Shown: positions 45,881 through 57,655, counted from the stretch's first letter. The stretch: 64,000 nt of DNA from a virus (IMGVR_UViG_3300035498_000877:225235-289234); one strand, 5' to 3'. Translations and numbers: made by a program. The notes: generated from the letters alone by a model not told the origin.

Positions 45881-48800
45881 TGTTACAAGTTAATGCACTA
45901 AAACCAACCGAGAAACCTGTTGAACAATTAAAACGTTGGAAGTACAAGAAACATGCATTTCCAAATGGAGCTGAATCATATTGGATTAAATGGAAATTAT
46001 ATCCAGATGATGCTAGATTTTTCTCTGCACCGAAAACGATGATAATTAAGTTCGACAAGGAATTGTCACACGTTAACAATGAAAACATCTCTGCACTCAA
46101 TGAGTGGAAAGTATCTAAAATATCCTATTCCACTTACCTACCAACTATGTGTGAAGAGTTGAATTTCTTTGAAACAATGTATGATCAGGAAGGAGAACTA
46201 ATCACAGCACTATTTAGAATTAAATACCTTATAGATGGAGATAATGTATCTTATACTATGAAGAACTTTGAAGCATTCAAAGATATTTGTTATAAGACTA
46301 TATTCACAGACTCCATCAAGGAAAAGATCATCAAGATGGTAGAAGAAAATTATGTTGATGACATTGAAGCTGAAAATATTAAAAACATGAAAAACCCAGA
46401 TATGTTATCTATTATGCAACGCAAAAAGAAATCATTAGAATTTCTGAATGTCCATGTAAAAGCAATGCTAAAGATATCATTCTGTATAAAAATATTGTCA
46501 TTTGTAATTAATCATTTTGCAGTAATGAGATCTATCAACATACAAAAGAATATAGATATCTTTTATCAATTCTATGTAGATACATTCTATATATTTGATT
46601 TTGATTTTGATATCTACAATAAGATATACGCCTGAAACACACGGGCATACTTCTTTAATTGCCGGAAGTTCCTTAGAGCCTAAATAACTGCAGCTAGTAG
46701 TGATATATAGTGTAGCAATATACATAACGGTATATGGATAGTAAAATCATTTAGGATTGGATAATCAAAGGCAGCTAAATAACTATTAATGATACGAATT
46801 ATATATTATAAAAGAAAGGAGGTTAAATATCATGAAAAATAAAGATAAATGTAAATTGATATGTCAAGATTGCGGAGCAGAATTCTACTTACAATATGGA
46901 TGGGTTAAGAAATTTCCATCTAATCATCATTGGAGATGTAAACATTGTAGAATCGAATATCATAAGTTATGGCATAAAAATATGGATCCTGAAAGAAAAG
47001 CTGCAGTATCTAAGAAAATGTCAGAAAGTGCAACAAAACGTTGGAAATCAATGACAGATGAAGAATATAAAAATATGTGCGAAGCTATGTCTAAAGGTGA
47101 TGTAAAATATTGGTCTAATTTGCTTGATGAAGAATATGAAGCTAGATGCAAAGTCAATCAAATGATTCAAGATAATTTATCTGATGAGAAAAAGAAAATT
47201 CGCTCAGAAAAGATATCAAAAGCTCAGGCAGAACGATGGAAAAATATGAGTGATGATATGTATGATTACATGTGTGAAAAATTATCCGAAGCAGCCCATT
47301 TGTATTGGGATAATATTACAGATGAAGAACTGAATAAACGAAAAGAAGATATGTCAATTAGATCTAAATCATTCTGGAAGAATATGACTAAGAAAGAATT
47401 TGAAGAATGGTGCATCAAACAAATGAAACGTCGAAAGGAAAACTTTACAAAGAATGAATTAGATTTTATGAAAATCTTGAATTTGTATAATATTAATTAT
47501 GAAGCACGTGTTTGTAGTACAATAATTCATCCAGATTTTTATAAATTATTTCCTAGAAATCCAATAATGGATAATGAACATGTAGTTCCATACCATGAAT
47601 GGGATTTCAAATTAAATTTAATAGATAAAAGTATATTTATTGATGTTGATGGGAGTATACATGATCCTCAAAAAACTAATTATCAAGTTGAATATTATAC
47701 TGGTAAGATGTTTAAAAAATCAGATTATATTCAATTCAATGATTCTCAAAGACCATATCAAACTGATGGTTTAGATTCATATATAATATTAGTTTATGAT
47801 GATAATTTAACTATGGATTGCATAGTTAAAAATGTATCCAATGATGATACAATGAAATTATCTGAATTTATTAGTTTGATTTATGCAAATAATTTGACAG
47901 ATAAAGAATTAAAAGAAATTATAAAAGTATCAAATAATAGTTAGAAGTTCAACGACTATCGACCAACTATAGTGTTCGAGAAATACGGCACCAATATAGT
48001 TAGTAGAGTACTTACCAAGCTAATGGGTTATATAACAATGGAATGGTTATATGTAAAAGGAAATGGGAAGCTAGAATATTAGTGATATAGTCTCAACGAC
48101 CAATAGGTCCTTCATACTTGAAATAGTATGTCGTTATGTGAGAGCATAAGCTGCATTAAGTTGCGATATACATTTTGCGAATGTATATGAAGATAATTGA
48201 TGTGGAGAACAAAGTAAACAGTTCTTACAATTTTAACAAAGCCATATTCCAACAACAAGAGATTGACTTTCAGTCTCACCTCTCATAATTGCGGAGAACT
48301 CTCGTTAAGTCAATACTACCAAATTACTATAGTGATATAAGTAATGGCAAGAGGTAATATCTCAAGGTATGGTAAAAAGGTATTGAATAGAGACAACCGT
48401 CGCAGCTAAATTAATCTAATAATTAATAGTTATATATTATTGAAAGAAAGGAGGTAATCAATATGATTAAAAAATTAAAAATTAAAAGTAACAATTCAAC
48501 CAAATCTACTAAAGATTCAGAATCATCAATGGAAGAACTATTGAAGTGTTCAGCATTTTCAGTTGATGAAGAAGCTGACTATATCAAAAAATTCTCATCA
48601 TTAACACCTGAGAAGAAAATTGCTTTACTTAACTATATCTTCAATGAATCTATTCCAGAGCAATTAAATATTCCATTTAAGAATCCATTCTATATTAGAG
48701 ATAAAGAATTTCTTAAAATGTATGAAGATGGATACAAAAATGAAGTATATGAAATGATAGTCATGAATGATTTGAAGAAAAGTGATTTAATGGCTACTCG

Positions 48801-50411
48801 TACATATGTAAGCAAAAAGGTAGATCCAAGATTTTATGAGTTATTTTCACCCAATCCAATATATCCAGCATTTGGAATGAGCCCAACATATTCATGGGAT
48901 ATCTTAGTACGTACTATAGACGGAGATATATTAGTTGATGTTGATGGTCCAATCCATAATGAAGAACTTGTTACCGATACACTCACTTATGATGACAAGT
49001 ATCAACTTAAAATTATTGATTATATTCGTCTTAAAGAATTACAGAGGTTATATCAAACTGATGGGCTACAAGCATATACAATAAGATGTATTAATGGAGA
49101 AATTACTGATGAAACTCCTGTAATTGATATTTATACAAATAAAGAAATGACTTATAAAAGTTTCATTGGATACTTAGAATGGACAAGTTTATCAATTGAA
49201 ACACGATCATGCATAATACTTGATGATGAAGAAGAATTAGATTAATATGTTCAACGACTATCGACCAGCTACGTATATGGACTAATAACCTATACAATGT
49301 AGTCAGTAGAGTAAATCCCAAATCACCAATGGGGACTGTAATTCTTGGAAGGAAACAGAGTAATTTGAAACGAGAGGCCCCGTATATTTAATAGTAGAAT
49401 ATACGGGGAAGATATAGTCTCAACAACCAATAGGTTCTTCAATTGTGGAATTCAATTGTCGTATGCCGAGAGGCATAGCAGAGTTAAAAGCTCGATATAC
49501 ATGTTGTGTATGTATATGAAGATATTTGTGAAGGCAAGGATAAAAGTATTATTATCGATCAGATACTCCGAAGGAACTGCGTAATCGATAATTTCATCAA
49601 ATTTTCCCTACCTAAGACATGGAATAAGGTTAAAGAGCAACCAAATGAGAGAGTACTATCATTCTTATGTAGTATTGTAAATACACATATATCAATTTTC
49701 ATTATGCAGGTGTTTAGAAGAAATCTCATCGAAACTTCAATAGTTCCTGATGTTGATGGAAATAGTAAGAATGATAGATACAGAGCTTCTAAGATGAAGC
49801 TAAATGAAGAATATGTAATCACATGTACTATGGATATGAATAATCTAACTAAGGATCTGTTTAAACGTTACGAAAGTGAAATATCTATAGAGGAATTAGA
49901 TTACTATCGAAGAAATCTAAAACCTAGTAGATTACATCAGCTGATGATAGAAATTTATTTCTTTAATTATACATCATCAGCATCAGAGTTTGCACTACTT
50001 CGAAATATGGATTGGTACAAGCTATTATTAATCATGAGAAAAGATATCATGAGAAGATTTAATGTTACAAAAGATTCGTTATTAGATTCATCACTGGTAC
50101 TATTATTGACATCTAATATTGAGGAAACACCAGTAGGTGAGAAAATGTATATTAAAGATACTAAGTATCTCAAAGACAATGAAACCTACAACTATCTTGT
50201 TGATCACTATTACAGTACTATCGTAAGTATCAACGAGGACATCATCAAGAAGTTTTTAATTACCTTCGTCAATAGTAAATATACATTCGTATTATATGAA
50301 CACAAAGAACTATTTGGCGAAGAGGTCTCAATGAATAAGAGAGATCTAATAGATCGTTTATTAGACTTCCTTGTTTTAGCAAATACCAACATATCGTTGG
50401 ATAACTTTTAA
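45880..50411 (+). CDS. Probable sigma-like promoter-specificity subunit of non-virion RNAP (AR9 gp226/phiKZ gp68-like); exons 45880-46633, 48200-48263, 49529-50411 (566 aa)
   Basis: Splicing gives one frame: ...YNKIYA|YVENKV...QQQEI|EGKDK. The N-terminal IKFDK..ISALNEW.VSK.SY pattern resembles my recollection of AR9 gp226; it lies near beta-prime. Confidence 0.65.
46802..46809 (+). promoter_or_regulatory. TATATT(A/C)T putative phage early promoter motif (representative of 11 copies)
   Basis: Also at 7574, 15535, 22285, 24422, 27930, 41392, 48433, 52478, 57749 (+) and 61552-61559 (-), each shortly upstream of an RBS; resembles the phiKZ early consensus TATATTAC. Confidence 0.6.
46832..47944 (+). 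CDS. Intron-encoded endonuclease (Zn ribbon, Trp-containing helical repeats, Vsr/EDxHD-like domain)
   Basis: CQDC/CKHC, repeated W(K/S/D)(N/S)(M/L/I)(T/S/L)DE units, EWDF...IDVDGSIHD. Confidence 0.7.
   Translation: MKNKDKCKLICQDCGAEFYLQYGWVKKFPSNHHWRCKHCRIEYHKLWHKNMDPERKAAVSKKMSESATKRWKSMTDEEYKNMCEAMSKGDVKYWSNLLDEEYEARCKVNQMIQDNLSDEKKKIRSEKISKAQAERWKNMSDDMYDYMCEKLSEAAHLYWDNITDEELNKRKEDMSIRSKSFWKNMTKKEFEEWCIKQMKRRKENFTKNELDFMKILNLYNINYEARVCSTIIHPDFYKLFPRNPIMDNEHVVPYHEWDFKLNLIDKSIFIDVDGSIHDPQKTNYQVEYYTGKMFKKSDYIQFNDSQRPYQTDGLDSYIILVYDDNLTMDCIVKNVSNDDTMKLSEFISLIYANNLTDKELKEIIKVSNNS
48264..49528 (+). mobile_element. Group I intron B with nuclease ORF
   Basis: GAGAT pairs with IGS GTCTC; TTCA can pair with 3' exon TGAA (P10); core elements present; terminal G at 49528. 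Confidence 0.88.
48463..49245 (+). CDS. Intron-encoded endonuclease, paralog of 46832
   Basis: SWDI...VDVDGPIHN...QRLYQTDGL matches EWDF...IDVDGSIHD...QRPYQTDGL. Confidence 0.7.
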   Translation: MIKKLKIKSNNSTKSTKDSESSMEELLKCSAFSVDEEADYIKKFSSLTPEKKIALLNYIFNESIPEQLNIPFKNPFYIRDKEFLKMYEDGYKNEVYEMIVMNDLKKSDLMATRTYVSKKVDPRFYELFSPNPIYPAFGMSPTYSWDILVRTIDGDILVDVDGPIHNEELVTDTLTYDDKYQLKIIDYIRLKELQRLYQTDGLQAYTIRCINGEITDETPVIDIYTNKEMTYKSFIGYLEWTSLSIETRSCIILDDEEELD

Positions 50412-51432: not shown

Positions 51433-54400
51433 ATGCGAATTAAGTTTTCACGTATTAATTTCGAAGAAATGTGTGCATGGGACATTATTAATGACAAAGG
51501 ATTTTTAATTAATGATACACCATTTGCAGACATTGACAAATCAATACGTAACATGGATGGACCTAGATCACCACGATTTGGTACTACCTATGGAGATACA
51601 AATGAGTTCATGGACAGATACAGATGTGATTGTGGTAAAACATTTGGAGCAGCATTTGAAGGAGAAAAATGTCCTCACTGTGGACATATTGTAGAGTACA
51701 AAGATGTAGATATGTTATACACGGCGTATTTGAATTTTTATCCGTTTCACGTAATCAACCCGCTGATGTACCATAGGCTGCAGTCGGCATTATCTAAAAA
51801 GAACTTAGAAAATATTATATCAAATGAAAATATAATTACATCTGCTGGTATAATAAGAAAACATAATGATCAGATAGAAGTAAAGAAATCTATGTTATTG
51901 TATCATAACATTGGATTGAAAGAATTCTATGATAATTATGAAGAGATTATGGAGTATTATAAATCTAAGAGAAAGATAAAAGCTGATTTAATAGATCAAC
52001 TAATTAGAGATAAAGATTTAGTATGGACATCCAAGATTCCTGTATATAGTACTACATTAAGACCAATGGGAATATCATCTGAATCTTATTTCTTTAATTC
52101 ATTAGATAAACAGATATATCCATTGACAAATATCTCACTGAATCTGAGAAAAGCATCTGCCATTGAAGTTCCATTATATTTGTATCAGGCACAGATGAGA
52201 GTTAATGAATTATGGAATCTTAACTTTTCTCTTATTGATGGAAAATATGGATGGATACGATCTCAAGTACTTGGCGGTGAGTTCAATTATTCGAGTGAAT
52301 TTAAATGGCCCGTCACTTCGTAATTGCTGGAACGCCTTCAGAGCCTAAATAACCGCAGCTGGTGGTGACATGCAGTGTAGCAGATAGTATAACGACTATC
52401 GGATGGTAAAATCATTTAGGATTAGGTAATCATAAGCAGCTAATTAACTATCTTAAATTATAAATTAAATCTGGTAATATATTATAAAAGAAAGGAGGTA
52501 GATATCATGAAAGATAAATTAACTAAAAAATTACTTAAAGATCAAGAAAAAGAATTAAACAAAAGATCTATGGAATTATTTGGCAAATGTTATGCTGAGT
52601 TAATGATTGCTGAGATTACTAAATTAGATCAGTATATGAAAGATTTAGCCAATCCACAATGGAAACGAGTGATAATCGATAATATAGTTACTTCTTATGA
52701 AGTTAATAATGTTGGTGAAGTCAGAAATATAAATACTGGGCATATTAAAGAACACCAAATAAATCAAGATGGATATAACCGCATTTCAATGTGGTATAAT
52801 AATAAACAAAGGAAATTCCAGAATGTTCATAGATTAGTTGCAATAGCTTTTATTCCTAATCCAGAAAATAAACCTCAAGTAAATCATAAAAATGTCAATA
52901 AACAATGTAACTGGGTTGGTAATTTAGAATGGGCTACTGCTAGCGAAAATCAAATTCATGCATATATTCATGATCTTCATATTCCAAAAACTGGTACTGA
53001 ATATTGGAATTGCAAACATACAGAAGAACAAGTTCATCAAGTATGTAAATTGCTTGAAAGATCTATTCCAATAAATAAAATTGCTAATAAGCTAAATGTT
53101 ACTGAAGCATTTGTCATTGGAATAAAATATGGTAATTGGGGATATATTCGTGCCCAGTATGATATTCCTCCATCAAATACTTATGGAGATAGAACCCAAG
53201 AGCAAGTTGATATAATAAATAACTTGATAAGGAATGGGTGTAGAAATAGGAAATATATACTTAGCCAAGCAGGTTTACCAGATACCAAGACTAATATATC
53301 ATACGTGAAATATCGTATTAAAATTTATAATGAGATAGCTAAAGGTTCAACGACTATCGAATGCTCAGATGCTGGAAGAAATACCACATCATAAGTACTC
53401 GTTACCCCCTAAGCCAATGAGGGCCAGTAAGCGTGAGCAGCTGGAGTAATGGGAAGTGAAGTGCTCTATATATTTGGTAATAGAGTATATAGGGAAGATA
53501 TAGTCTCAACTACAGAAATGTACTTCATACTTGAAATAGTATGTCGTCTACTGAGAGGTAGAGAAGCATTAAGTTGCTGCTAGTATGTTGCGAATACTAG
53601 TGTAAGATATTGCGTGCAGTTATAGTTCTTGATCCAACTCTTCATATAGATGAAGTAGATGTATCATATAAACAATTTATAGTTCAATATAAAGGATTAA
53701 TAATAAAACATATTATAGCAGATAAAGGATGGACTGTTACAAAGACATCAAATTATTTAGCATCTAAATTCAAATTTGATGAATATGTATACAGTATCAT
53801 GTGTAAAATAATTGAAGAAGAATGCCCGAGGTTGATACTCAACCGCAATCCTCAACATGTGGGATAAACTGACCTAATTGCGGGAATATCTTGTTAGACT
53901 TATACTACTAACTTTAGATAGCAATATACTAAAGGGCAATGGGTAATTCCAAAGGTATAGTAAAAAGGTATAAGATAGAGACAATCGACGCAGCGAAGTA
54001 TCTATTAATAGATATGAGTTCAACGACTATCCCATTGGATTCTATATGAATCAACAGGAGTACGGCTACAAGCTAATGGTAGCGGGTGAAATTCCCTTAA
54101 TTGGAAAAGGCAGCTCTAATATTATTAGAGAGATATAGTCTCAACTGTAGAAATACACTTCATACTTGAAATAGTATGTCGTCTACTGAGAGGTAGAGAA
54201 GCATTAAGTTGCTGCTAGTATGTTGCGAGTACTAGTGTAAGATAATGACAATTACATTTGGTAGTATTTTACTAATGAAAATACGGAAAGTAAAGATGGA
54301 TGCAAATGACTACACATTAGCGATTCCATCAGCAATTTTACCGGGTCAACAGGCGGCCCATCCTCTCTTATATGCGGGAAAGCATTGTGCCTAACAATGG

Positions 54401-56255
54401 CCTGGATAATACTGGGTGCCTAAGAGCTTTAACTACCAAGTTATATTAGTGATGATATGATGGATGAAGTAACTATTCATGTATGGTAAAAAGGTTAAAG
54501 ATATATGGTCAATCCGCAGGGAAGATAATTGATTATCAACTATCACCCTCAACGACTATCCCTGTGAAGGGAGTAGATTCTAAAGCTAATGTAGAATCGA
54601 AATGAGATGTCATGATAAATTATTATGAAAGATATAGTCTAGTATCCTAGCGAATAGTTAGGGAAGTTCATAAGAGAACTGCACAGAGTTGCGACCTGTG
54701 TGAATAGTACGCTTAATGCTGACTTAACGTCTTCCCAGTCGAGGTCAGCCTAAACTCTTCTAATTGCGGGAAACTTATAATAGGATTCTATATACCAAAT
54801 TATCATGGTGACATAGATAGTGGCAAGAGGTAATATCTCAAGGTATGGTAACAAATATGGAATTATCAAGTAATCGACGCAGCGAAGTATCTAGTAATAG
54901 ATATGAGTTCAGAGACTATCGAAAACATAGTATGAATAGTGATATTCATATGAAGAAGTGAGTAGAGTAGGGCCATATAAAATATATGGTGGGGTTGGGA
55001 TCCCTTAAATCCAAACGGAGAGTTCTATGAGAGTATGAGTAGTTATCCACACTCCCATAGTGAAGATATAGTCCTTTAAATAATTATTATTCTGATTTAT
55101 TATCTTTATATTCTAATGGTGGCAACAAAGTAAATCCTGGAAAATATTCCATTTTGATTTTAGGATTTGTTTCATTGATATATAAAGATATAGTATTATA
55201 TAAACCTTTGTAAAATTCTTTAGCTTTGTCAGAATGACGATCTTGAGTACGAGCATTTTGATCATTCAATACTGCACTATTTAATATGTATGCACGCTTT
55301 TCATCATTAATATAAAATGAAAACCAGCCTTTGTATGGTTTACCTGTACGCACAGAATTCTTTATTATATCTTTTGAAGTTCCAACAAAATTACCAAATA
55401 GTTTCATTGATTCAGATAAGATTATTTGCTGTTGATTCATATTAATTGATATGATTGGTTCTGAACGAAGTCGTTTACCATTAATGGTCATTCCATATGT
55501 TCTAATTGATGGATATAATCCTTCACCTGTACTACTTAGATTATAGCCATTCTTTATTGTGTCATACTTATTAATGAAATACTCTTCAGCAGCTTTATGA
55601 TTGTATTTATTTGTTTCTGCAATTGGATACATTATAAAATTATTGAATCCTTCATTAGCCATAGCTTTTATGATAGGTCGATTTGCATGTTTACTGGTGT
55701 TTTTATTCTCCTTAATACAGTTATATTCATATAAATAATGCGACGCTCGTTTCTTAAGTGGATTTAATGGGTTAGGATTTCTAACATCTGTCCATTTGGA
55801 ATAAACCGAACCTATATATTTCTGATGGTTAGTTTTATTCTCAATACAGTAAATATATCCATATGGTGGTGAACCATTTGGGGTTTGTTCTTTAAACTTA
55901 TTGGGGATAGGTTTGTCAATAAGAAATTGTTCCATTAGTTCACGATTTTGTTTTAGTTTTTCTTCACTTGCCATATTATTACATCCTTTCTTAATTTCCA
56001 CACTTCAGGTGGGATAGATTTTTAGGTATCATATTAATAATATGTAAGTGAAAAATAAGGTTTTATTAGAATAATTAATTATCCCATGTTGACGGAGATG
56101 TACTTAATAATTTAGCATTAACAATGGAAGAATTTTGGGAGATGTTTGATGGATTTTCCCCTACTAACATGTTGATAGATAGAACTAATTCATCTATCAA
56201 ATATGATTGTTCTGCATTGGAAAATGTTACGTTAGCAATCTTATCAGATAATTAA
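51433..56255 (+). CDS. RNA polymerase beta-prime N-terminal subunit (non-virion type); exons 51433-52296, 53613-53852, 54248-54346, 54712-54724, 56089-56255 (460 aa)
   Basis: Zn finger CDCG..CPHC; spliced motifs GGEFNYSS|RAVIV, LNRNP|TI, LPG|LNADF|DGDVLN; the exons total 1383 nt in frame. Confidence 0.92.
52297..53612 (+). mobile_element. Group I intron 1 of beta-prime, with HNH ORF
   Basis: Exon ends in U; IGS GCCCG (one mismatch); core elements present; terminal G before CGT GCA GTT. Confidence 0.87.
52507..53394 (+). CDS. NUMOD4-HNH homing endonuclease
   Basis: YEVNNVGEVRN, VHRLVAIAFIPNP, VNHKN, NLEWAT..EN..H; the 3' end runs through the P7 element (STTIE). Confidence 0.9.
   Translation: MKDKLTKKLLKDQEKELNKRSMELFGKCYAELMIAEITKLDQYMKDLANPQWKRVIIDNIVTSYEVNNVGEVRNINTGHIKEHQINQDGYNRISMWYNNKQRKFQNVHRLVAIAFIPNPENKPQVNHKNVNKQCNWVGNLEWATASENQIHAYIHDLHIPKTGTEYWNCKHTEEQVHQVCKLLERSIPINKIANKLNVTEAFVIGIKYGNWGYIRAQYDIPPSNTYGDRTQEQVDIINNLIRNGCRNRKYILSQAGLPDTKTNISYVKYRIKIYNEIAKGSTTIECSDAGRNTTS
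53853..54247 (+). mobile_element. Group I intron 2 of beta-prime (395 nt)
   Basis: ATCCT pairs with GGGAT; AATTGCGGGAA, TTCAACGACTA, GATATAGTC; ends GATAATG. Confidence 0.9.
54347..54711 (+). mobile_element. Group I intron 3 of beta-prime (365 nt)
   Basis: GGGT pairs with GCCC; ATGCGGGAAA, CAATCCGCAG, TCAACGACTA, AAGATATAGTC; ends TAGTACG. Confidence 0.9.
54725..56088 (+). mobile_element. Group I intron 4 of beta-prime with antisense GIY-YIG ORF
   Basis: GCTGACT pairs with GGTCAGC; GTCGA pairs with 3' exon TTGAC (P10); TTCAGAGACTA, AAGATATAGTCC; ends CCCATG. Confidence 0.88.
55087..55974 (-). CDS. GIY-YIG homing endonuclease (antisense within intron)
   Basis: GYIYCIEN...YIGS, R, E, GYN; AAAGGA RBS before ATG 55974. 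Confidence 0.85.
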   Translation of the reverse strand: MASEEKLKQNRELMEQFLIDKPIPNKFKEQTPNGSPPYGYIYCIENKTNHQKYIGSVYSKWTDVRNPNPLNPLKKRASHYLYEYNCIKENKNTSKHANRPIIKAMANEGFNNFIMYPIAETNKYNHKAAEEYFINKYDTIKNGYNLSSTGEGLYPSIRTYGMTINGKRLRSEPIISINMNQQQIILSESMKLFGNFVGTSKDIIKNSVRTGKPYKGWFSFYINDEKRAYILNSAVLNDQNARTQDRHSDKAKEFYKGLYNTISLYINETNPKIKMEYFPGFTLLPPLEYKDNKSE

Positions 56256-56294: not shown

Positions 56295-56363
56295 TACCAA
56301 TAAATAAAGCTCTATTAGTTATTAAATAACACAAAATAAATACTAGAAAGGAGATATACTATT

Positions 56364-57655
56364 ATGAGCAAGAAGTACTTGGGGGGGGGGGTTCATTAAA
56401 ATCCCTAATACAAACTATATTAACAACATTTCCAACAAGTGAAATTACTGAAGATGAAATAAATGATATGTACTATCCTAAATATGGATTTAGTATAGAT
56501 CAAACACAATCTGATCCTAATAATGTAATATCATATATAGGATTAAATAAAGACTATACACCAGTACATATGGATTATGATAATGATGTATTTGATTATG
56601 GTGATTGGGGCAATGCATTCTTTATTAAGAATCTTAGACCATGTATGTTAAATTATAATGGTACTGAAGCATACTTATTAGATCCTAATGATTATACTAA
56701 GAAACTAGACGGTACTGATTCAGATGCTACTAATTCTGACTTTGCTGGTAATGTGATGGTAGGAATACCTAAAGTATATTTTAAGATAGTACCTATAGAT
56801 GATGACCATTGTAATTTCTATTTTTCTGAAACTAAAAGAGATGGATATCATTGTTGGGCACATATTAACAATTATGGTGATGAGGTACCTTATATGTATA
56901 TGCCAGCATATGATGGTAGTAATGTAGATAGTGTATTACGTAGTATTAGCGGATTAGACGCTATTTGGAAAGCTGAAAACATACAAATTATAGCTGATTA
57001 TGCATATGCTAATAATCAAGATGATGATAATATATGGTCTATGAATACATATAGTGATTGGTTATTAATAGTATTATTATCACTATTAATATCTAAAACT
57101 ACAGATAGCAAAACAGCATTTGGCAAGGGTAATTATTCTGCCAGATCTACTCAGAATTATGGTATGATTAAATCAGGTACTATGGATCAAAAAGGATTAT
57201 TCTGGGGTAGTACTGATAATACAATTGGTGTTAAAATATTTGGTATTGAAAACTTCTGGGGAAATATTAATAGATTAATGTATGGATTAATAAATTATTA
57301 TGGTACTCAGAAAGTAAAACTTACATATGGTACACAAGATGGTAGTACAGTAGAAGGATATAACTTTACAGGTGATGGATATATAGAAGCTGGTTCTACA
57401 CTTCGAGGTTCAAATCGCTTATACTATTTATCCAAAATGACATTTACTGAAAATGGTATATTCATTAAAGACATATCAGGAACTGCAGGTACTACATATG
57501 GTAATACAATACCCTATTATGATCATAGTAAATTGGAGATAGCTTGTATTGGAAACAATACAGGATACACGTTATTATTGGGTATATATTTCATTACAAA
57601 TTCATCGTCATATGCAGGTGGTTCTCCCAAATGCCTACCAAAATTAGTAAGTTAA
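56364..57655 (+). CDS. Fibre/receptor-binding-like protein (GIENFWGN, probable C-type-lectin-like fold); frameshifted at a G11 tract
   Basis: AAAGGAG + ATG 56364 reads MSKKYLGGGVH*; the -1 frame is open into ORF 56468-57655. Confidence 0.7.
56381..56391 (+). repeat. G11 homopolymer in the fibre-gene 5' cassette
   Basis: GTACTT-G11-TTCATTAAAATCCCTAAT. Confidence 0.9.

Follow-up and report, generated by a model that had tools for sequence, protein, structure and literature searches.

The last 64 kb of a 289,234-bp IMG/VR virus genome rated complete (IMGVR_UViG_3300035498_000877, positions 225235-289234) form the stretch of DNA analysed here, 64,000 nucleotides (nt) with a guanine-plus-cytosine content of ~30%, which is referred to as the window and in which all coordinates are counted unless the whole genome is named. 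The virus is an uncultured gut jumbo phage of 289 kb, and positions 51433-56255 hold a gene that is, as judged by homology, that of the N-terminal, catalytic half of a split RNA polymerase (RNAP) beta-prime subunit. This gene is very probably interrupted by four group I introns, the third and fourth of which were inserted independently at homing sites 13 bp apart, in or just upstream of the codons for the catalytic motif NADFDGD. With introns 3 and 4 separated by only 13 bases, the codons of the motif would become adjacent only after splicing.

The open reading frame (ORF) of exon 1 (P0001) resembles the N-terminal part of jumbo-phage RNAP beta-prime, with 25-28% identity to phiR1-37 g274 and BpSp RpoC, and among cultured phages the best matches include proteins annotated as 'non-viral RNA polymerase beta-prime subunit' (MarsHill/Madawaska) and 'non-virion RNAP subunit, N-terminus' (AR9 g270). 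The predicted enzyme most resembles the non-virion RNA polymerase of AR9/PBS1/MarsHill-type jumbo phages, an assignment drawn from the annotation of distant relatives at 35-41% identity. The gene ends 51 codons past the catalytic motif, as in a beta-prime subunit split after the catalytic domain. When proteins were searched with exon 1, 215 relatives were recovered, many of them 460 amino acids (aa) long, 75-81% identical to exon 1 and carrying PF00623, a family for which the intronless homologue P0003 scores 44.8 bits (cut-off 25.3), and the proteins of intronless relatives read ...AIPSAILPGLNADFDGDVLN... through the motif. A near-identity search of phage records returned only an unrelated endonuclease fragment.

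Comparison of P0003 with the window by tblastn recovered exons at 51433-52293, 53613-53852, 54248-54355 and 56091-56252 and left residues 402-406 (LNADF) unmatched. The exons of the gene, together with the two predicted introns that surround these residues and the gene carried by the second of them, are as follows.

51433-52296, plus strand: exon 1, 288 codons, ending ...NYSS; located by tblastn with P0003, its 3' splice site set by analogy with a related contig (L010)
53613-53852, plus strand: exon 2, 80 codons, RAVIVLDP...LILNRNP
54248-54346, plus strand: exon 3, 33 codons, TITFGS...AILPG, last bases CCGGGT
54347-54711, plus strand: intron 3, group I, 365 nt, no ORF; 3' strand of P7 at 54630-54639, terminal G54711
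54712-54724, plus strand: exon 4, the micro-exon CTTAATGCTGACT, 13 nt, encoding Leu-Asn-Ala-Asp and the first base of Phe
54725-56088, plus strand: intron 4, group I, 1364 nt; guide 54738-54749, core 54750-55076, terminal G56088
55087-55974, minus strand: predicted GIY-YIG homing endonuclease gene, an ORF of 295 codons antisense to intron 4 and inside its P9 loop
56089-56255, plus strand: exon 5, starting TTGACGGAGAT (TT GAC GGA GAT ... TAA), which completes Phe and continues as DGDVLNN...ILSDN to the stop

Joined, the five exons give 1383 nt, or 460 codons and a stop, reading ...AILPG-LNAD-FDGDVLN..., and the product, which contains LNADFDGD, is 79% identical to P0003. An earlier interpretation of the locus made from the sequence alone (the sequence-only reading) had proposed alignment to intronless homologues as a check, and the joined product aligns gap-free from end to end with 37 such proteins of 460 aa (identity ~76-79% for eight of the 37). 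LNADFDGD is invariant in 36 of these homologues, the remaining row being gapped there. Nonsynonymous differences of 0.16-0.22 against synonymous differences of ~0.7 (three relatives), values which are the same as among intronless relatives, indicate that the joined frame is under purifying selection. In the unspliced genome, by contrast with the joined frame, the active site would be invisible to ORF callers according to the same reading, and this is what we found: a search of the raw 289-kb genome with PF00623 gave no match, the database proteins of relatives terminate at intron sites, and no contiguous D[FYWLIMV]DGD or [FY]DGD that could belong to this gene is present in any of the six frames. 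The looser pattern D-x-DGD occurs in two places of the genome, namely an exon of a second beta-prime gene and position 2585 of the window.

A degenerate pattern for Leu-Asn-Ala-Asp followed by T has the micro-exon at 54712-54724 as its sole match in the window on both strands, while shuffled sequence yields 0.36 matches per 128 kb searched, and ~0.005 matches are expected by chance on the right strand of the 1.7-kb gap between exons 3 and 5. G54711, the 3' end of intron 3, directly precedes the first base of the micro-exon, so that the 5' end of exon 4 coincides with the 3' splice junction of intron 3 as had been suggested; its last base, U54724, forms a wobble with G54743; and G56088 directly precedes exon 5. 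The 13 nt thus comprise six bases adjoining the terminal G of intron 3 and seven (54718-54724) that pair with 54743-54749 in P1 of intron 4, the number given in the sequence-only reading.

The borders of exon 4 can be read from related phages in which the two sites are occupied in all combinations. Both sites are intron-free in L009, L010 and L011, where CCNGGN continues directly into CTNAAYGCNGAYTTYGAYGG. Intron 3 alone is present in L016/L017, L018, L042/L043 and L044, where the intron ends in ...GTGAAT..ACG and is followed by an unbroken CTNAAYGCNGACTTTGATGG (13 nt into TTGAYGG), which fixes the 5' edge of exon 4. Intron 4 alone is present in L015, where CCCGGT-CTTAATGCTGACT is unbroken and followed by TAACGC...GTCGAGGTCAG; this ORF-less intron of 298 nt occupies the same site as intron 4 and ends in ...ATG before TTGATGGGGAC, which fixes both the 3' edge of exon 4 and the T|TT split of the Phe codon. 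Both introns are found in three other lineages, L014/L023/L028 (exon of 13 nt, CTCAATGCTGACT), L012/L013 (15 nt, CTAAATGCAGACTTT) and L045 (15 nt). The micro-exons of relatives vary at synonymous positions only (CTT/CTA/CTC, GCT/GCA), and the rebuilt coding sequences of L015 and L016 give 460 aa each, with LNADFDGD. Together with the 460-codon joined frame, these intronless, single-intron and double-intron relatives bear out the borders proposed for a 13-nt micro-exon within the NADFDGD codons, and the L015 allele likewise upholds the proposed splitting of the Phe codon between exons 4 and 5.

A metagenome scan for the junction between exon 4 and intron 4 gave 21 matches, three of them relevant (L020, which is the L014 contig, L023 and L028) and the others unrelated; scans of viral contigs for this junction, and for the odd 3' junction of L014, returned the L014 contig only. 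Rfam missed most of the introns at the relatives' loci, since large ORF insertions break the model, and is not usable there as a negative. The downstream intron of L012 (10999-11768) is 76-79% identical to the core of intron 4 over 135 and 61 nt. In L012/L013 the insertion point of this intron is shifted 2 nt downstream, behind the complete Phe codon, with the guide GGAGUCU and a resulting exon of 15 nt, as if a related intron had been retargeted by two bases.

The core of intron 4 matches the Rfam model RF00028 at 54687-55095 (55.2 bits, E 2.8e-11, above the gathering score of 50), and the alignment includes P3, P4 (UGCGGG), P6, P7 (GACUA/UAGUC) and P8, as well as a long insert between P7 and P3' that looks like the P7.1/P7.2 extension of subgroup IA. 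P1 pairs the exon bases GCUGACU (54718-54724) with GGUCAGC (54743-54749), and P10 pairs GUCGA (54738-54742) with UUGAC, the first five bases of exon 5, contiguous with the P1 guide in the classical layout. Both pairings are kept in L015 and L014, the C-to-U change in UUGAU of L015 being absorbed as a G-U pair. The 'P1' that Rfam aligned within its match lies inside the 3' end of intron 3 and was rejected in favour of GCUGACU/GGUCAGC, which has the wobble, the contiguous P10 and conservation in L015 and L014. The P1 hairpin of intron 4 folds at -12 kcal/mol; for the short P1 hairpins of introns 3 and 4, folding energies alone are not significant against shuffles, and support for the predicted P1 pairings is comparative, not thermodynamic.

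Additionally, an A+U-rich P9 stem (~55071-55097 with 56059-56081) encloses a loop of ~960 nt, its closure at -14.7 kcal/mol comparing with -9.6 +/- 2.6 for shuffles, of which 15 of 500 were as good. The antisense ORF in this loop matches PHROG 314 at 5.9e-10 and PHROG 5123, 'homing endonuclease with GIY-YIG motif', at 3.6e-8, and more weakly the Pfam family SegE_GIY-YIG (17.4 bits, below the cut-off of 25); a search of solved structures with it gave no relevant match. It is 45% identical to an ORF at the same antisense position in L014, which argues that the odd orientation is inherited and not an accident of the present assembly.

Intron 3 forms P1 by pairing GGGUC with GGCCC (54343-54347 with 54355-54359), with the wobble U54346-G54356. 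Homologous introns stand at this site in L016, L018, L012, L014, L042 and L044, and L045 carries a different intron of 202 nt, where exon CCUGGU and guide GCCAGG amount to a compensatory change in P1. A helix near P1 is 100% paired in six homologues with compensatory changes at five of its five pairs, a covariation score reached by none of 500 shuffles. The intron closes with a terminal hairpin at 54680-54702 (loop UUGCGA) and a 9-nt tail ending in G54711; this 3'-terminal hairpin is kept by six different stem sequences, with a tail of 8-12 bases ending in G.

The exon borders, the pairings, the homology to introns that occur singly and the purifying selection on the joined frame are matters of observation, and from them a course of splicing can be proposed. 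The introns would fold on the pre-mRNA, intron 3 pairing GGGU at the end of exon 3 with GCCC and intron 4 pairing GCUGACU with GGUCAGC; guanosine would attack after the U that forms the wobble in each P1; each intron's terminal G (54711, 56088) would dock and the exons be ligated, in the case of intron 4 guided by P10 (UUGAC with GUCGA). The product would read CCG GGU CUU AAU GCU GAC UUU GAC GGA GAU, or PGLNADFDGD, with the junctions CCGGGU-CUUAAUGCUGACU-UUGACGGAGAU. Homing is probably driven by the putative antisense GIY-YIG endonuclease of intron 4, and intron 3, lying 13 bp away without an endonuclease gene, would be carried along in the gene-conversion tract of intron 4.

The gene contains two further predicted introns upstream.

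52297-53612, plus strand: intron 1, group I, 1316 nt, with a sense HNH/NUMOD4 homing endonuclease ORF at ~52507-53394
53853-54247, plus strand: intron 2, group I, 395 nt, no ORF; RF00028 match at 53823-54160 (34.6 bits, E 7.6e-6)

The ORF of intron 1 matches Pfam HNH_3 (1.9e-7) and NUMOD4 (1e-3, below the Pfam cut-off), and the intron carries a J3/4-P4 element, AAUUGCUGG, and a P7 element, GAUAUAGUC. GUAAUUG was tried as the guide of intron 1, with splicing after TAT, and rejected, as it is the conserved J3/4-P4 (AAUUGCNGG) and as L010 puts the junction after codon 288. In intron 2, P1 pairs AUCCU with GGGAU and includes a U-G wobble. Introns 1 and 2 share 95% identity over their final 117 nt (53496-53612 and 54131-54247) and differ in their 5' parts, which suggests recent recombination or gene conversion within one gene. 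Outside the gene, an intron 3' element of the GAAGATATAGTC type lies at 49245-49490 between the ORFs 48430-49245 and 49488-50411 of an upstream gene, proposed from sequence alone to encode a sigma-like polymerase subunit and to be split by introns, and a run of G at 56381-56391, possibly a slippage switch, stands just after the ATG at the start of the next gene (56364 onward), with a long ORF at 56330-57655 in another frame.

Several observations count against a set of independently inserted, working introns. Both the splicing of the introns and its order we infer from sequence. The core of intron 3 matches RF00028 (54254-54663) with 38.1 bits (E 7e-7), short of the gathering score of 50; only 5 pairs make up its P1; and no consistent P10 pairing was found between intron 3 and the micro-exon. 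Codon 288 (52294-52296) reads AGT and encodes Ser, in contrast to the Gly found in all 37 full-length homologues (NYSG|R). The change lies in P1 of intron 1 (CGAGU with GCCCG) and introduces an A-C mismatch; with GGT, the ancestral codon, pairing would be perfect, and Ser288 may reflect genuine variation, a mistake in the assembly or a splice site that has been weakened. Further, the downstream introns of two double-intron relatives (L014:7238-7255 and L045:5480-5495) have A, not G, before the exon that restores ...DFDGD, and an alternative register in L045 would require a G-C pair where the 5' splice site normally has its U-G wobble. Either these alleles are defective, or the sequences contain errors, or the splice sites are non-canonical, and without the canonical terminal G not every double-intron allele need be competent for splicing.

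The present allele might alternatively be decaying or defective in splicing, with the phage relying on another polymerase and the micro-exon a relic, as the replacement of an invariant Gly288, the loss of an endonuclease gene from intron 3 and the missing terminal G in L014 and L045 might suggest. We regard this as very improbable, because the joined frame is intact and under strong purifying selection over 460 codons, introns 3 and 4 appear to keep complete cores and have the U-G wobble and the terminal G, and the genome, rated complete, has as its other beta-prime gene a distinct paralogue of ~940 aa and no spare copy. A faulty assembly, in which variants of one metagenome with intron 3 only and intron 4 only were fused into a chimera, is hardly credible as the origin of the arrangement: the record is a metagenomic assembly and both single-intron alleles do circulate in related phages, but a chimera needs a crossover inside 13 bp, and double-intron alleles recur in independent assemblies from different samples and lineages (L012, L013; L014, L023, L028; L045).

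A different question is whether the two ribozymes, beyond having been inserted independently, are coupled, either through an obligatory order of removal or through sizeable skipping of exon 4, which would give a frameshifted, inactive product serving as a control of timing or dosage. Only six bases lie between the terminal G of intron 3 and P1 of intron 4, a tether that may prevent simultaneous docking of both cores; exon skipping by phage group I introns is documented for Twort orf142 and the SIOphi terminase (PMC11878797); and the double-intron layout recurs in four lineages. Against this, the ribozyme contacts do not overlap (6+7 nt), intron 4 using the last 7 nt only and intron 3 making no P10 with the micro-exon, so that either order of removal is possible on paper; each intron is found alone at the same site in relatives, and so neither needs the other; and intron 3 is fully transcribed before intron 4, which makes sequential removal, 3 then 4, the simplest expectation. 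On the suggestion of the sequence-only reading that splicing order may be constrained, the evidence weighs on neither side. Coupling of the kind described, which would add to independent insertion, is in our view unlikely. We are similarly doubtful that the intron pair and its 13-15-nt exon form a functional unit, with fixed order or cooperative action, an ORF-less intron riding the conversion tract of the downstream endonuclease, and the whole favoured in gut jumbo phages as a weapon or shield where co-infecting phages compete at the polymerase active site, such that its recurrence in four lineages would reflect selection and not just repeated chance invasion of a hot spot. Independent insertion of introns 3 and 4 at neighbouring homing sites is the reading we prefer.

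The region around the motif is densely occupied. Insertion sites were read from truncated database proteins (P0007-P0121) and from contigs (L009-L046), and with relatives pooled the 460-codon gene has at least nine of them, after about residues 161, 224, 273, 288, 368, 401, 402/403, 405 (+1 nt) and 406, at least four of which fall within the six codons G401-F406. Across this clade of ~290-kb gut phages, with contigs in human and pig gut assemblies, the presence of introns varies, as does that of their endonuclease genes, and intron length goes down to 202 nt (L045). One homologue belongs to a bin labelled Roseburia, no more than a hint at a host.

The second beta-prime gene, which encodes ~940 aa at 103.3-106.5 kb of the genome, outside the window, carries a group I intron of its own. 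This intron of 371 nt (genome 104726-105096; L002:1535-1905) scores 50.7 bits with Rfam, lies directly before ADYDGD, pairs AUGGGU with GCUCAU in P1 and has a terminal G. Intronless homologues read LDGMG|ADYDGD across the insertion point, for which reason a junction inside 'SN|ADYDGD' was rejected. With introns in both beta-prime genes, both catalytic loops of the phage would exist only after splicing.

Mobile introns in phage polymerase genes are already known, as are micro-exons, and the present case shows this known habit in crowded form. In AR9-type phages, introns are reported to disrupt RNA polymerase genes frequently (bioRxiv 10.1101/2020.12.14.422802). Bacillus phage AR9 g270 is a member of this gene family (residues 3-129 of a 178-aa query are 38.5% identical), and its GenBank coding sequence is joined from two pieces, with the HNH/NUMOD4 endonuclease g271 in a group I intron. 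The insertion falls within the catalytic motif, at DYDG|D before the last Asp, as verified on the sequence, and so marks another site of the hot spot. AR9 has one intron, inserted at another point (after the Gly of DYDG), with a sense endonuclease and no micro-exon, whereas the present gene has four, including a pair separated by 13 nt, and a predicted antisense GIY-YIG gene.

Neighbouring group I introns that flank a small exon have also been described in the large-subunit gene of ribonucleotide reductase of Bacillus phage phiNIT1, by nanopore sequencing of complementary DNA (PMC11878797). That example resembles ours in layout and shows that such layouts are spliced in phages; it differs in concerning another gene and another phage group, and in that transcripts were seen there while the present case is known from DNA alone. 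Very short exons between self-splicing introns of a conserved gene are likewise found in mitochondrial cox1, including an exon of 1 bp in placozoans (PMC5436844) and examples in fungi such as Agaricus bisporus (PMC2987802). These lie in organelle genomes, where protein cofactors often assist splicing, and not in a phage or in the active site of an RNA polymerase.

In the jumbo phage PhiPA3, gp210, the endonuclease of a mobile group I intron, is reported to act against a phage that co-infects the cell (Birkholz et al. 2024, PMC11620839), which offers a plausible reason for such sites becoming intron hot spots; PhiPA3, a chimallivirus, differs in having a single intron. In gut Jug and crAss-like phages, many group I introns and free or intronic endonucleases fragment essential genes, with splicing partly confirmed by metatranscriptomes (PMC12880540). 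Those are other clades and other genes (terL, nrdD, DNA polymerase), and the sections consulted describe no micro-exon. The present case is set apart by the different, AR9-related clade of gut phages, the unusually complete comparative support and the predicted antisense endonuclease.

For this clade, neither ORF callers nor a Pfam search of the raw genome can find the catalytic domain of the polymerase, and dozens of versions in public protein sets are truncated, breaking off at intron sites; micro-exons of 13-15 nt escape even homology-guided joining of exons unless they are sought. Exon 4 is at once the 3' exon for one ribozyme and the source of 7 nt in the P1 of the next, which makes it near the smallest exon capable of both roles and, conveniently, a natural substrate on which to study how neighbouring ribozymes interfere with one another. 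The gene is, further, a clear natural example of homing elements crowding onto the active site of an enzyme.

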